Notes under the pieces: generated by a model
Seen by the model: the letters and a program-made list of their open reading frames with translations, nothing else
What the model was told of the DNA's origin: nothing
Database searches by the model: none
Program-made: the position numbers and the translations under genes
In this document: positions 3,744 through 52,831 of the stretch, piece after piece
How positions within the stretch are numbered: the stretch's first letter is position 1
How the letters are laid out: every line of letters begins with the position of its first letter
IMG/VR virus record: IMGVR_UViG_3300017763_003980
DNA: 64,000 nucleotides
Strand: one strand, 5' to 3'
DNA from: a virus
Lineage: Duplodnaviria; Caudoviricetes

Positions 3744-3764
3744 TATTTATCGTATCGATAAATA
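3744..3764. promoter_or_regulatory. Palindromic back-to-back late promoter pair (GATAAATA on both strands)
   Basis: TATTTATCG-TAT-CGATAAATA is a perfect inverted repeat between the divergent gp13 and gp14 genes. Confidence 0.75.
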
Positions 3765-3769
3765 TACAT

Positions 3770-4930
3770 ATGCCAAGACTATCTTTATATAAACCAGAAC
3801 GCGGCAATGATTATCATTTTTTGGACAGACAAATCCAAGAAATGTTTACTGTTGGCGGAACTGATATTAACATACACAAATATTTAGGTGCAAAAAATCC
3901 TAGTACTGCGGAATCAACAGCAGACCAACCTAGATATGACGCAGTAAAAGAAACCAACATACAAGACTTACTATTTCTTGAAAATAGAGATAGGAAATAC
4001 GATCCTGACGTTTATACAATGCGAGCTGTATATAATGTACAGGATATTGATTTTGATCTATCACAATTTGGTTTATTTTTAAGCAATGATACATTGTTTA
4101 TGACTATACACATAAACAGTAGTGTAAAAACTCTTGGTAGAAAAATTATGAGCGGTGACGTTATAGAATTGCCGCATTTAACTGACGAGTATGCTCTAAA
4201 CGATTATGACGTAGCATTAAAACGCTTTTATGTTGTAGAAGATGTAAATCGTGCTGCAGAAGGATTTAGTCAAACTTGGTATCCACATTTATATAGGCTC
4301 AAGCTAAAACAAATATACGATACACAAGAATACAAAGAAATTTTAGATTTACCTGCAAGCGAAAATTCAGACAGCACTCTTAGAGATGTATTATCTACAT
4401 ATGAAAAAGAAATGCAAATCAACAGGGCAGTTGTCGCACAAGCAGAATTAGATGCGCCTAAGAGTGGATTTGATATAAGTCATTTTTATACTGTTGCAAA
4501 AAATGATGACGGTTCTGTTGCGTTACAAACTGCTGATCAAGAAGACTTAGATGCGTCAATGATTAACACTACAGCTGACGAAATAGCTGATAGGCCAGAT
4601 CGAGAGGGATATTCAGGATATCTTGTAGGCACAGGAGATGTTGCTCCTAATGGTGCACCTTTTGGATTTGGCATTGCATTTCCTAGAGATAATATGGATG
4701 GCGACTTCTTTTTGCGTACAGACTTTTTACCTAACAGAATGTTTAAATATGATGGCAATAGATGGGTAAAACAAAATGACGACATTAGAATGACACTAAG
4801 TAACACACTTGAAAAGCAAACACAAAAATCAAGCTTTATAAACAATACTAATCAAAGCACTATAAACGGCGAAGTTGTTGAAGAGCGTCAAAGCCTGTCT
4901 AAGGCACTTAGACCAAAAAAGGATAACTAA
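3770..4930 (+). CDS. g14: Neck / head completion protein (T4 gp14-like); start moved from 3716 to 3770
   Basis: MPRLSLYK...DFDLSQFGLFL...GDVIELPHL...YRLKLK. The ATG at 3770 follows TAAATA-N5 and removes the overlap with gp13. Confidence 0.75.
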   Translation: MPRLSLYKPERGNDYHFLDRQIQEMFTVGGTDINIHKYLGAKNPSTAESTADQPRYDAVKETNIQDLLFLENRDRKYDPDVYTMRAVYNVQDIDFDLSQFGLFLSNDTLFMTIHINSSVKTLGRKIMSGDVIELPHLTDEYALNDYDVALKRFYVVEDVNRAAEGFSQTWYPHLYRLKLKQIYDTQEYKEILDLPASENSDSTLRDVLSTYEKEMQINRAVVAQAELDAPKSGFDISHFYTVAKNDDGSVALQTADQEDLDASMINTTADEIADRPDREGYSGYLVGTGDVAPNGAPFGFGIAFPRDNMDGDFFLRTDFLPNRMFKYDGNRWVKQNDDIRMTLSNTLEKQTQKSSFINNTNQSTINGEVVEERQSLSKALRPKKDN

Positions 4931-6354
4931 TGCGACATTTTTATGACGGACAAATAAGACGTTACACTACTCAAATGATGCGTATTCTAAGTAACTTCCC
5001 TGTGATAGATGGTGATGGGCAAACCAAAGATGTGCCTGTTATGTATGGAGATTTAACTAGGCAGGTAGCTAATATTATAAGAGAGAACAGCGAAAATAAA
5101 TTACCTAGTGCTCCTAGAATTAGCGTTTATATAACTGGGCTAGAACTAGATAAAGATAGACTAACAGATGCTACATATACTAGAAAAACTAATATACGAG
5201 AAAGAGCATATGATGATGTTAATAAAGAATATTTAAATACTGAAGGTAAATCTTATACTGTAGAACGCCTAATACCTACACCATATTTAATGAGAGTAAA
5301 CGCTGATATTTGGGCAAGCAATACTGATCAAAAACTGCAATTACTAGAACAGATACTAGTGTTGTTTAATCCTAGTTTAGAAATGCAAACTACAGATAAC
5401 TTTATTGACTGGACTAGTATTACTGCCGTAATTTTAGAAAATGTACAATGGAGTAGCAGAAGTGTTCCTGTAGGAATCGATACAGAAATTGACATTGCTA
5501 CACTAACATTTAGTTTGCCAATTTACATTAGTCCTCCGACTAAAGTTCGTAAAATGGGTGTTATTACAAATATTATTACTAGCATGTTTGATGAAACTAC
5601 TGGTACAATCGAAGATGGAGTATCACGTCCTGAATTAAATGCTTACGATGATGTAAGCTTGCCGGGCACATCTACAGACAGCAGAGGCACTAGAGTTGAT
5701 TCATTAGTAGGCGGTCATAGTGCTAATGTAAACTTTGCACAGTGGGGAGTATATGTTAATCAAGGATCTGCACAACTTGTAGCAAATGGAATGGTTGGTG
5801 TTAAAAATTGGAGAGAGATATTTACAGCATTGCCTGGTACTTATGCCGCAGGTGTAAGTAGAATATACTTAACTAGTAATGATAACACAAAAACGGTTAC
5901 AGGTACATTTGCACTAAATCCTTTAGATGAAGGTTCTATTGCTATTGATTTTGATACAGACAGTTTCCCTTCAGATGATATTATTAGTAGTGCATTAGGT
6001 GATAGGACATCAATAGATTATATTATAGATCCTTTAAATTATGATCCTACATCTATTAAGACATCTGGGTTACGTATATTACTTCTAGATGATATAGGTG
6101 GCGCTTCTGCTACACAAGTATCTTCAGCTTGGGCTAATGATAACGGTACTGGCTTAGTTGCTAGTGCGAATGATATTGTAGAGTGGGATGGTAGCAAATG
6201 GAATATTATCTTTGATGCTTCAACTATAACTTCTACAACATATGTAACAAATTTAAATACACAAGTACAATATAGATTCAAAAACAATGAATGGTTACTA
6301 AGTATTGACGGTGACTATCCAGTTGGCACATGGAGAATTGATCTCTTTGGCTAA
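4930..6354 (+). CDS. g15: Tail terminator / sheath stabiliser (T4 gp15-like) with C-terminal extension
   Basis: MRHFYDGQIRRY...VPVMYG...PRIS...PTPY...QLLEQILVLFNP; follows gp14. Confidence 0.8.
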   Translation: MRHFYDGQIRRYTTQMMRILSNFPVIDGDGQTKDVPVMYGDLTRQVANIIRENSENKLPSAPRISVYITGLELDKDRLTDATYTRKTNIRERAYDDVNKEYLNTEGKSYTVERLIPTPYLMRVNADIWASNTDQKLQLLEQILVLFNPSLEMQTTDNFIDWTSITAVILENVQWSSRSVPVGIDTEIDIATLTFSLPIYISPPTKVRKMGVITNIITSMFDETTGTIEDGVSRPELNAYDDVSLPGTSTDSRGTRVDSLVGGHSANVNFAQWGVYVNQGSAQLVANGMVGVKNWREIFTALPGTYAAGVSRIYLTSNDNTKTVTGTFALNPLDEGSIAIDFDTDSFPSDDIISSALGDRTSIDYIIDPLNYDPTSIKTSGLRILLLDDIGGASATQVSSAWANDNGTGLVASANDIVEWDGSKWNIIFDASTITSTTYVTNLNTQVQYRFKNNEWLLSIDGDYPVGTWRIDLFG

Positions 6355-41949: not shown

Positions 41950-42399
41950 TTATGCGTCTTCAGTGAAGTCTGTATCGTCAGTACCTGATTTAGTATCATC
42001 ATCACCAGCTTCTTCAACTTGTACTGCACCGTCTGCGCCTGCAACTGTAAAGTTCCAAGAAATACTTGTACCGTCTAGTGCGTTTGAACCAGTAGCTGAA
42101 GGTTGCTTTACAGTAACTTTTCTACCTGCAATTTTAGAAACACCGTATGTTTCATCATCATCACCTTTTACAGAAATTGTCATTTCTGTGCCAGTAAGTG
42201 CAGCTGGTAGTTTACCAGTTACAAGTGTGCGATCATAGCTTCCGCCATCTTCTGTTGCACGTACTCTAAACTTCTTGCTACCAAGTTGTTTTACAATATG
42301 TCCTTCAACAACTGCTGATCCGTCATGAAAGTTAACTTTAATTTCGTTTCCGCTTGCTGTTGGTGTTCCGAAAAATCTTTTATTAATTGGTCTTCCCAT
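41950..42399 (-). CDS. Hypothetical virion protein
   Basis: Strong AAGGAG RBS and its own late promoter; 149 aa. Confidence 0.65.
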   Translation of the reverse strand: MGRPINKRFFGTPTASGNEIKVNFHDGSAVVEGHIVKQLGSKKFRVRATEDGGSYDRTLVTGKLPAALTGTEMTISVKGDDDETYGVSKIAGRKVTVKQPSATGSNALDGTSISWNFTVAGADGAVQVEEAGDDDTKSGTDDTDFTEDA

Positions 42400-42486
42400 T
42401 TGTTTTCTCCTTAATAAGTTGACGTTCTAGGTCTACGGGGTTGGTTCCCCATAAGTCCTCATCTAGAGGACATCCTCTTGACATAG

Positions 42487-42494
42487 TATTTATC
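42487..42494 (-). promoter_or_regulatory. Late promoter GATAAATA followed by a leader with two hairpins
   Basis: Motif about 90 nt upstream of ATG 42399; stems GTCCTC/GAGGAC and TATGGGG/CCCCGTA in the leader. Confidence 0.6.
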
Positions 42495-42503
42495 ATTAGT
42501 AAC

Positions 42504-42535
42504 AAAAGAAAAAGGCCCGCTTGTGGCGAGCCTTT
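42504..42535 (-). terminator. Intrinsic terminator
   Basis: AAAGGCTCGC-CACAA-GCGGGCCTTT followed by TTCTTTT; fully paired (with G-U) only on the minus strand. Confidence 0.8.
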
Positions 42536-42753
42536 TAATATAAGGTGATAGGTTGGACTTCAGAATACCAACAACCTAGGCTTACAGTCTGTCTGATAAT
42601 ACCTAAGCACCTCGCATCGAAAAGTTACTTTCAAAACCTGCATCTTCGTGTCTCCACGCTCATACAGTGCCACTACAGCTACGAGTCAAGTTCAGGACCT
42701 GCCATCCCTCTTCCTTGCACTATCGTAAGTTAAACCGTCATCTAACTTACTGT
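42504..42753 (-). ncRNA. Candidate structured ncRNA of about 250 nt, family not recognised
   Basis: Bounded by a sigma70 promoter and a terminator, with no ORF over 27 aa on the sense strand. Stems at 42725-42750, 42647-42658 (GAGA tetraloop) and 42549-42578. Confidence 0.5.
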
Positions 42754-42757
42754 ATAC

Positions 42758-42785
42758 ATAATAGCATCTTTGTAGTAGTTGTCAA
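42758..42785 (-). promoter_or_regulatory. sigma70-type promoter
   Basis: TTGACA (42785-42780), 16-nt spacer, TATTAT (42763-42758). Confidence 0.7.
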
Positions 42786-42803
42786 CCACTTTTTTAAAAA
42801 AAA

Positions 42804-42837
42804 GTCAAAAAAATAGGCCCCCTAAAGGACCTATTTT
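42804..42837 (-). terminator. Intrinsic terminator after the major capsid gene
   Basis: AAAATAGGTCC/GGGCCTATTTT stem followed by a T run. Confidence 0.8.
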
Positions 42838-42862
42838 AATCTCGTATATTACTAAAGTAATA

Positions 42863-44038
42863 TTAGCTAAAGCTAACGTTACCTGAAGTAATAGCAACAG
42901 CGCCGAGGTAATCAGCAGCGTTACCAAGAGACGAAGCAGTATTTGATAATTCAATATACCCGTATCTTGTCATAAAGCTTACTGTTGGCTCAAATGTGGA
43001 CGGATCCAGCACAACGCCTGAGCTCATTAGCGGAATGTATGGGCAATAGAATGCTGCCGCATCTGATTCGCTTGAACCTTTATAACCAACAAGTACGTTA
43101 GCATTGTCAGCTGCATATGTGTTTACATATACTTTCATAGCGTTGTTCAAAGTACCAACCATCTTAGTGTTAGTTGGAGCTTCGAATGAACCTTCAGTTG
43201 TTCTTGCGAACGCTGAAGTTGTAGCACTCTGCAGAATTGTAAGTGCAAATGGACTTACAACTGCCCAGTTACCTGCGCCTCTACGTGTACGCTGAGCGAT
43301 CTGGTTTGATACTCTGTTAATTTGAACAGCTAAAGCAGCATGCTCGTCACCAACAAAAGTAGCAGTACCTGATACAGCAGCTTGGTCATATGTTTGACCT
43401 GCTGAGCCAGCTAGTGTGTTTAAGCTTGCAAGTACCTCTTGATCAATTTCAGCGGTAATTTCTTGTGCTAAAGCAGCCATAATTTCTGCTTCAACGTCAA
43501 TACCGTGCATTGATTGAGCGTCTTGAGCCGCTTCAAAAGTCCAGCGAGCTGATAGCTTTCTGGTTTTTGCTTCGACTGTTTGCTTTAAGATTTGGATTGA
43601 TAACTTGTTACCAGCCGCACCTTCAAGTACTGCTGTGTTATCAGCTTTACCTGTTGAAGTGTTACCGGAATAAGCTTCCGCAATCTTAAATGGTGAAAGT
43701 GCTTCTTCACCAGCAGTAGCGCCTGAAGCGCCTGAGCCTGCTGTATCAGAGTAGCGTACTCTCAATGTGTGGATTTGACCCACAGGACCAGTCATAGGCT
43801 GAACACCAACTAATTCGTTAGCAATAACGGTTGGCATTACACGTCTGATGACGGGTAGGATAACTCTGTTAAGAGTTGCGACATTACCGGCGGATGTTGT
43901 TCCTGCTACAGCTGTCTCAGACAAATACTTGCGAGTATTTTCTAAGGTAGTAGCCATAACGCCTTTTTTGTTGCCTTGAAGGCCTTCCAAAAGTGCAGTT
44001 TTCGTATCCTGCCAGCGACTTTCTAGTAGTTCTGACAT
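42863..44038 (-). CDS. g23: Major capsid protein (T4 gp23-like)
   Basis: RRVMPTVIANELVGVQPMTGPVGQI, VEAKTRKLSARWTFEAAQD, FYCPYIPL, FMTRYG. Confidence 0.95.
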   Translation of the reverse strand: MSELLESRWQDTKTALLEGLQGNKKGVMATTLENTRKYLSETAVAGTTSAGNVATLNRVILPVIRRVMPTVIANELVGVQPMTGPVGQIHTLRVRYSDTAGSGASGATAGEEALSPFKIAEAYSGNTSTGKADNTAVLEGAAGNKLSIQILKQTVEAKTRKLSARWTFEAAQDAQSMHGIDVEAEIMAALAQEITAEIDQEVLASLNTLAGSAGQTYDQAAVSGTATFVGDEHAALAVQINRVSNQIAQRTRRGAGNWAVVSPFALTILQSATTSAFARTTEGSFEAPTNTKMVGTLNNAMKVYVNTYAADNANVLVGYKGSSESDAAAFYCPYIPLMSSGVVLDPSTFEPTVSFMTRYGYIELSNTASSLGNAADYLGAVAITSGNVSFS

Positions 44039-52791: not shown

Positions 52792-52831
52792 TATAAATAA
52801 ATTAGATACATACTTATATTATGTATTTATA
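52792..52831. promoter_or_regulatory. Face-to-face late promoters TATAAATA (+ 52792-52799; - 52824-52831)
   Basis: Exact motifs in the 80-bp gap between the divergent tape measure and gp26-like genes. Confidence 0.7.

Follow-up and report, generated by a model that had tools for sequence, protein, structure and literature searches.

A probable free-standing gene for a divergent manA-family RNA behind the major capsid gene of an uncultured phage

Why should a phage keep a host-type promoter, followed by a stretch poor in open reading frames, directly behind its major capsid gene? The window, by which we mean the whole 64-kb stretch of viral DNA that was analysed, contains a 41-kb block of late genes (11072-52680). 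The largest intergenic gap in this block is the 463 nt at 42400-42862, and within it only one intergenic promoter, which begins at 42785, fits the sigma70-type consensus. We consider that positions 42751-42505 on the minus strand are, with a probability of about 0.8, a free-standing RNA gene whose product, stable, structured and about 245 nt long, would represent a divergent branch of the manA family (RF01745). This family is a known and unexplained one rather than a new one; what sets the present case apart is a free-standing gene as against the gene-leader switch that has been catalogued. The promoter, start site, terminator efficiency and timing discussed below are sequence predictions, both this giant phage and its host being uncultured.

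Read along the minus strand, the locus runs from the capsid terminator through a sigma70 promoter, a folded RNA of about 210 nt and a second terminator to a late-promoter-like motif and then to the leader belonging to the late gene that follows. The upstream neighbour (42863..44038) encodes a T4 gp23-like major capsid protein of 391 aa (phrog_138 major head protein, E 1e-99), which shares 64-70% amino acid identity with the capsids of the jumbo phages Phosso, PA5oct and GAP32/CBB. Its intrinsic terminator (42810..42837), a 12-pair stem and then a T-run, is kept in relatives both with and without the cassette that follows. Between this terminator and the promoter lies an A/T-rich, UP-element-like tract (42786..42809), made up of a T-run and then AAAAAAGTGG immediately 5' of TTGACA. 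An A-rich tract precedes GGTTGAC in nearly all homologues, and in the window the tract may well act as an UP element. The promoter itself (42758..42785) consists of TTGACA, a 16-nt spacer and an extended -10 element, TGcTATTAT; in a consensus scan it showed 11 of 12 consensus matches for TTGACA-16-TATTAT, with TG at -15/-14. The structured RNA core occupies 42538..42751, with a predicted start at about 42751, and is followed by the intrinsic terminator of the RNA unit (42501..42536), whose stem at 42536-42510 has 11 pairs, six of them G-C, ahead of TTTTTCTTTT. All of the landmarks listed on this strand by the first-pass annotation, namely both terminators, the sigma70 promoter, the ORF-poor stretch and a late-promoter motif, were thus found to be present. 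When the 521-nt region was compared with GenBank phages at the nucleotide level, no match was obtained.

To the question of what the RNA is, Rfam at its gathering threshold gives no direct reply: in this region it reports only the freshwater-2 motif (RF02980), which scores 60.8 bits against a gathering score of 49.9 bits and lies outside the RNA unit. ARAGORN found no tRNA or tmRNA in the region, in line with the first-pass annotation, which had recognised no tRNA, tmRNA or 6S RNA; the RNA nevertheless matches a catalogued family. With Rfam run in E-value mode, as part of the family search that had been proposed at the outset, it aligned to the full manA model (RF01745, model positions 1-192) with 46.5 bits and an E-value of 8e-11. 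The gathering threshold of RF01745 is 55.2 bits, so that the window copy falls below it, as do the full-length RF01745 matches in 15 relatives from capsid-anchored IMG/VR loci (29.7-53.2 bits, none at threshold). Weak Rfam matches were also seen on both terminators (ctRNA_p42d, Trp_leader, rpsL_ricks and others), and these were set aside as terminator-like noise far below their thresholds.

A covariance model of our own, R1, was built from 12 of the capsid-anchored IMG/VR relatives. R1 finds the element in 25 among 80 loci, and in the 64-kb window it finds exactly one copy, at 197.5 bits. Searched in the reverse direction, R1 matches the canonical manA of Prochlorococcus phage P-SSM2 with 29.7 bits and an E-value of 1e-11, the next best match reaching 6.7 bits, and the coordinates are identical to those at which P-SSM2 manA scores 181.6 bits against the Rfam model; Syn9 gave no manA match. 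Because the matches run in both search directions, we count the sub-threshold RNA as a manA homologue. The two also have sequence blocks in common, comprising the P1 loop GACGG, an AGUG block and UUGUUGGUA...CCAACCU, while the long-range helix that is GGGAG/CUCCC in canonical manA has become GAUAG/CUAUC in the present subfamily. Based on these sub-threshold but reciprocal and full-length matches, the flagged RNA is taken to be a divergent manA branch that lies below Rfam's threshold.

The predicted fold of this RNA is both stable and conserved. The folding energy of the transcript is -80.4 kcal/mol (z = -3.5), and none of 200 shuffled sequences folded equally well. RNAalifold applied to 12 sequences gave 45 pairs in ten helices, of which 22 pairs carry compensatory changes. 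In an alignment of 26 sequences (A2), 98.3% of cells pair, a percentage that is inflated by the fitting of this alignment to the model; 38 of the 45 pairs have changed on both sides, compared with 9-19 in slid controls, and where those controls give covariation scores of 0.05-0.09, the alignment itself gives 0.557. Covariation among capsid-downstream relatives, one of the checks that the first-pass annotation had put forward, shows that the fold is conserved, and the accompanying comparison of codons with base pairs came out the same way, substitutions following pairing rather than codons.

The conserved manA helix architecture is present and supported by covariation: a P1 hairpin, a long-range closing helix and two multi-helix domains. 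P1 (42750-42725, minus strand, as are all the elements that follow) has the covarying stem GTAAGTTA/TAACTTAC, and the long-range helix GATAG/CTATC (42724-42720/42551-42547) is likewise conserved and covaries, as does the hairpin CGTG-GAGA-CACG (42658-42647), whose loop is L6. Among the stems proposed from the sequence at first sight, P1 and this GNRA hairpin have thus held up. GCTTA/TAAGC can pair, but this pairing is peculiar to the window and takes the place of CTTAG/CTAGG, a conserved helix, and TAGGTTG/CAACCTA turns out to overlap two conserved helices, GTTGG/CCAAC and the long-range GATAG/CTATC. A further proposed stem, AGTGC/GCACT, has no support because AGUGC is an invariant and unpaired block.

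The loops of the fold are of interest for what is known of canonical manA. L6 is a GAGA tetraloop in the window copy and belongs to the GNRA class in all homologues but two (L055, with GUGA, and L032). In most homologues the loops L5 (42676-42672) and L7 (42629-42622) could pair with each other over 4-5 bp; the window copy allows no more than 3 bp. Across sub-lineages the two tend to switch together, UAGU occurring with ACUA, and UGGU with ACCA or UACC; across the family we counted nine concordant combinations, two discordant ones and four others. The mean L5-L7 duplex was 3.8 for a sequence's own pair and 3.6 across classes, a small difference with weak statistics. The complementarity of L5 and L7 across the family is accordingly suggestive only, and it could equally reflect an intramolecular contact. 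A second kissing pair was sought by eye among L3, L8 and L9, and nothing consistent was found there.

If the product is a conserved RNA, it might still be a regulator that acts by base pairing. The first-pass annotation had called it an sRNA, and on this reading an early phage sRNA with a single-stranded seed would regulate host or phage mRNAs in trans. Such a role would suit a self-contained unit that ends, like Hfq-type sRNAs, in a Rho-independent terminator and U-tail, and would also suit the invariant unpaired blocks, for example GUGCAAGGAA at 42719-42710. However, the molecule packs ten covarying helices and multi-way junctions into about 210 nt, which is unlike typical sRNAs, and in two relatives (L015 and L077) a tRNA replaces the terminator. 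The invariant unpaired positions, moreover, are conserved in canonical cyanophage manA as well; since the same blocks are conserved across very different hosts, the constraint on them would seem to be structural rather than target-matching, and their occurrence in canonical manA points to tertiary or quaternary structure, not to a seed region. We therefore regard a base-pairing sRNA as unlikely, and the word sRNA does not fit this compact multi-helix fold in that sense. The qualifier "early" comes from the promoter type only, and would apply as far as that promoter predicts timing.

What the first-pass annotation had described as a self-contained non-coding unit, with a host-type promoter and insulated by two terminators, proved to be conserved as a whole cassette in 40 homologues. 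So that the search would not depend on the capsid gene, IMG/VR was scanned for exact matches to an invariant 14-mer of the RNA and the results were filtered with R1; the exact scan gave many chance matches, and 35 of 77 newly fetched loci failed R1 and were dropped. In total, 40 distinct elements were obtained across viral contigs. The promoter is kept in every one of these (40/40), as TTGAC, a spacer of 16-18 nt and TAnnnT, and ends about 7-9 nt before helix 1. A position behind the gp23-like capsid gene, at a distance of 97-1360 nt, is found for 33 of the 40, and three others are placed differently, with a bS21 gene on one side and Hsp20 on the other. In these three (L131, L094 and L114) the element lies 3' of a gene for the phage ribosomal protein bS21 (PF01165, E 1e-18), with an Hsp20 gene (phrog_432) and a phrog_9582 'dehydrogenase' gene downstream of it.

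Occupancy of the slot behind the capsid gene is variable. The cassette is present in 18 of the 46 loci with enough downstream sequence, and it is cleanly absent from a relative whose capsid is 95% identical (L002). The element is absent altogether from four relatives of 134-210 kb, and G005 has one copy. The promoter-RNA-terminator block is thus an optional cassette that is gained and lost whole, in a hypervariable slot behind the capsid gene. No alternative cargo on the same sigma70 promoter was found in the RNA-less relatives. In relatives whose slot has no RNA, small ORFs preceded by late-promoter-like motifs are found there (L028, L003, L009, L023, L035, L061, L070, L071 and L074), and the N-terminus of the ORF in the L028 slot is one that we take, by eye, to be IscU/NifU-like. 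Based on these small-ORF inserts, the capsid-downstream slot appears as a hypervariable hotspot for accessory cargo.

Two other RNA elements were seen in the course of this comparison. Glutamine riboswitch aptamers (RF01739, gathering 35 bits) occur at 5236-5282 of L012 (43.3 bits) and at 5234-5281 of L004 (50 bits), between the capsid terminator and the manA-like cassette, and their flanking sequence is also found in L036. At the end of the viral contig L094 (12888-13275) there is a two-piece permuted tmRNA of alphaproteobacterial type (RF04321, 118 bits; RF01849, 98 bits), which may be a hint of the host or an integration site.

The arrangement of promoter, structured RNA, terminator and gene is also the classic layout of a transcriptional riboswitch, in which the manA-like fold would sense a ligand and control read-through at the 42536-42510 terminator into the 149-aa gene. 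In support of this, manA RNAs, lying in 5' UTRs, have been put forward as riboswitch candidates (Weinberg 2010, PMC2864571), the P-SSM2 manA ends 16 nt before the purL start codon, and some of the present homologues precede Hsp20, which as Hsp20/ibpA was among the gene classes first linked to manA. A riboswitch of this kind would be expected to have an expression platform, that is, an anti-terminator or a terminator exclusive with the aptamer. The terminator here neither overlaps nor competes with the conserved fold. In most homologues a G+C-rich terminator lies directly 3' of the last helix, and by folding it is predicted to be constitutive, forming with a probability of 0.93-0.99 (0.96 in the full transcript of the window); the energy of the full transcript is the sum of the fold and the terminator, with no competing pairing. 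Folding gave no anti-terminator, and the longest complement to the 3' part of the fold was 4-6 nt, none reaching 7 nt or more.

The RNA also stands apart from the 5' UTR of the next coding gene, since a terminator, a late-promoter motif and a separate leader intervene. The T4-type late-promoter-like motif GATAAATAC for the downstream gene lies at 42486..42494 (minus strand, 42494-42486) and answers to the late promoter of the first-pass annotation. Given what is known of T4-type late promoters, that was a reasonable inference, as similar motifs of the form TATAAATA(C) lie 5' of other minus-strand late genes, at 52831, 47864, 40066, 38564 and 21622. Motifs of the TATAAATA(C) or ATAAATAC type also occur just upstream of minus-strand genes at 3750 and 1916. 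The recurrence of these motifs is consistent with their being T4-type late promoters in the window phage. The GATAAATAC motif follows the cassette terminator or, in cassette-less relatives such as L002, follows the capsid terminator directly.

About 15 nt 3' of GATAAATAC begins the freshwater-2 RNA motif (42397..42471, minus strand), which serves the next late gene as its 5' leader and runs up to the Shine-Dalgarno sequence and ATG. This leader is found in nearly all relatives, whether the cassette is present or absent, and a literature search on 'freshwater-2' turned up nothing relevant. The gene itself (41950..42399, minus strand) is an ORF of 149 aa beginning MGRPINK, whose N-terminus is conserved in relatives and whose product had no PHROG or Pfam match. 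The 149-aa gene therefore has a late-promoter motif and a leader of its own, identical in relatives that have no cassette, which stands against its control by the RNA upstream.

What follows the element in other relatives argues in the same direction. In L015 and L077 a tRNA-Gly(UCC) gene begins 1-2 nt 3' of the element, in the place of the terminator (5499-5573 and 4366-4439, respectively), and processing by RNase P would set the 3' end of the element in these two. In the other terminator-less copies, further structured RNA segments follow within the unit, and L045 has a different sequence downstream. One such segment, about 95 nt in length, is a conserved long hairpin (MFE near -42 kcal/mol), seen on the reverse strand directly 3' of the element in L150 and at 3909-4005 in L094, with compensatory differences between the two; another is a structured module of about 190 nt common to L011 (4631-4820) and L138, again 3' of the element. 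Neither the hairpin nor the module had an Rfam match at E 0.001 or better. With a tRNA-Gly or structured modules 3' of it, the element behaves as part of a stable-RNA operon. Given that there is no anti-terminator and that the 149-aa gene retains a promoter motif and leader of its own with or without the cassette, we consider a cis-acting riboswitch or attenuator at this locus very unlikely. A cis role may nonetheless exist in some contexts, such as the three homologues upstream of Hsp20, which belong to another type of phage.

The weakest alternative, offered by the first-pass annotation, is that a 27-aa ORF, MQVLKVTFRCEVLRYYQTDCKPRLLVF (42643-42560, minus strand; ATG at 42643, stop at 42560), encodes the functional product, and it can be dismissed with near certainty: the ORF is present in the window with GGAG 9 nt upstream, but this GGAG is buried in the CGUG-GAGA-CACG hairpin, the ATG is kept in 6 of the 24 other homologues covering the position and opens an ORF of at least 15 aa in none of them, indels of a length not divisible by three lie just 3' of it, no ORF is kept in frame or position, eight full-length homologues have no ATG-ORF of at least 15 aa, and substitutions track base pairing, so that we judge an ORF confined to the window copy in this homologue comparison to be spurious.

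This leaves the free-standing structured RNA gene as the reading that best accounts for the locus, and a comparison with canonical manA helps to define it. The present RNA resembles canonical manA in its fold, helix order, sequence blocks, covarying long-range helix and GNRA loop at L6, more tentatively in the complementarity of L5 and L7, and also in having a sigma70 promoter just before P1, in its occurrence in phages with T4-type capsids and, for a subset, in the link to Hsp20. In P-SSM2, a perfect promoter (TTGACA-16-TGnTATAAT, 12/12) ends about 5 nt before P1 of the manA RNA (142837-143034); it lies at 1465-1492 of L083 (about 142801-142828 of the record) and overlaps the end of regA. As P-SSM2 has its promoter in the same place, the arrangement of promoter and then RNA is a trait of the manA family. 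The 5'-UTR position is the basis on which manA was labelled cis-regulatory and a riboswitch candidate (Weinberg 2010, PMC2864571), and indeed in P-SSM2 no terminator hairpin follows the RNA and the purL start codon comes 16 nt downstream.

The differences are equally clear. Against RF01745 the present clade scores 30-53 bits, compared with 182 for P-SSM2, and its members have a strong terminator of their own, or are followed by a tRNA or RNA modules, rather than by a coding start 16 nt away. They are found among the late structural genes of jumbo phages related to the PA5oct and Rak2 groups, whereas canonical manA accompanies the metabolic genes of cyanomyoviruses. L5 and L7 are mostly UAGU and ACUA in the present clade, in contrast to the canonical consensus of UGGU and ACCA.

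In phage T4, a cluster of stable RNAs comprises tRNAs and the 'species 1 and 2' RNAs, which are co-transcribed from host-type promoters in the early/middle region. By description, the present RNA is like this cluster in being a small stable RNA of a T4-type phage with a host-type promoter and with co-transcription of tRNA, and unlike it in its position behind the capsid gene. A second point of reference is provided by ROOL and GOLLD, phage- or prophage-associated structured RNAs that are often found beside tRNA genes and form RNA-only closed cages (Kretsch et al. 2025, PMC12286853). The present RNA is likewise encoded by a phage as a unit of its own, is at times joined to a tRNA, and belongs to a family for which cages have been reported. 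It has no sequence or structural homology to ROOL or GOLLD, which are 2-4 times longer, and for the present RNA cages are suggested by analogy only.

The proposed mechanism for the free-standing RNA gene is as follows. Host RNA polymerase with sigma70 would transcribe the cassette separately from the late genes around it, probably beginning early in infection, and the product would be a discrete and abundant RNA that acts in trans, not the leader of the next gene. As to how it might act, manA RNAs have been found to self-assemble in vitro into decamers and a pentamer-based 60-mer, through L5-L7' kissing loops, L6 GNRA-receptor contacts and other loop contacts (2026 preprint, 10.64898/2026.07.01.735769). 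This oligomerisation is known from canonical manA only, from in vitro cryo-EM reported in a preprint, and the present RNA is known from its sequence. By analogy, the GAGA loop L6 and the complementary L5 and L7 might bring copies of the RNA together in a closed homo-oligomer able to bind or sequester a host or phage component, a tentative idea that we think has rather less than an even chance of being correct. Extending it to the whole family, in the sense that manA-type RNAs are not riboswitches and are instead independently transcribed phage RNAs that assemble into RNA-only rings or cages in infected cells, seems to us doubtful at present, if worth entertaining.

With manA already known as a family, the gain from this locus is a limited one. 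The threshold used by Rfam misses the present branch of manA, and the late-gene leader in these jumbo phages gives a genomic context to freshwater-2, an orphan metagenomic motif. The RNA also offers a compact and well-delimited construct of about 215 nt for assembly and pull-down work. For the family as a whole, which since 2010 has stood as an orphan 'riboswitch candidate', the present branch, very unlikely to be the leader of the next gene, moves the working hypothesis from cis-regulation to a trans-acting structured RNA. If the assembly of manA RNAs into rings or cages were true of infected cells, manA would be a small counterpart of ROOL and GOLLD, and the free-standing cassette described here would show the cage role most plainly.
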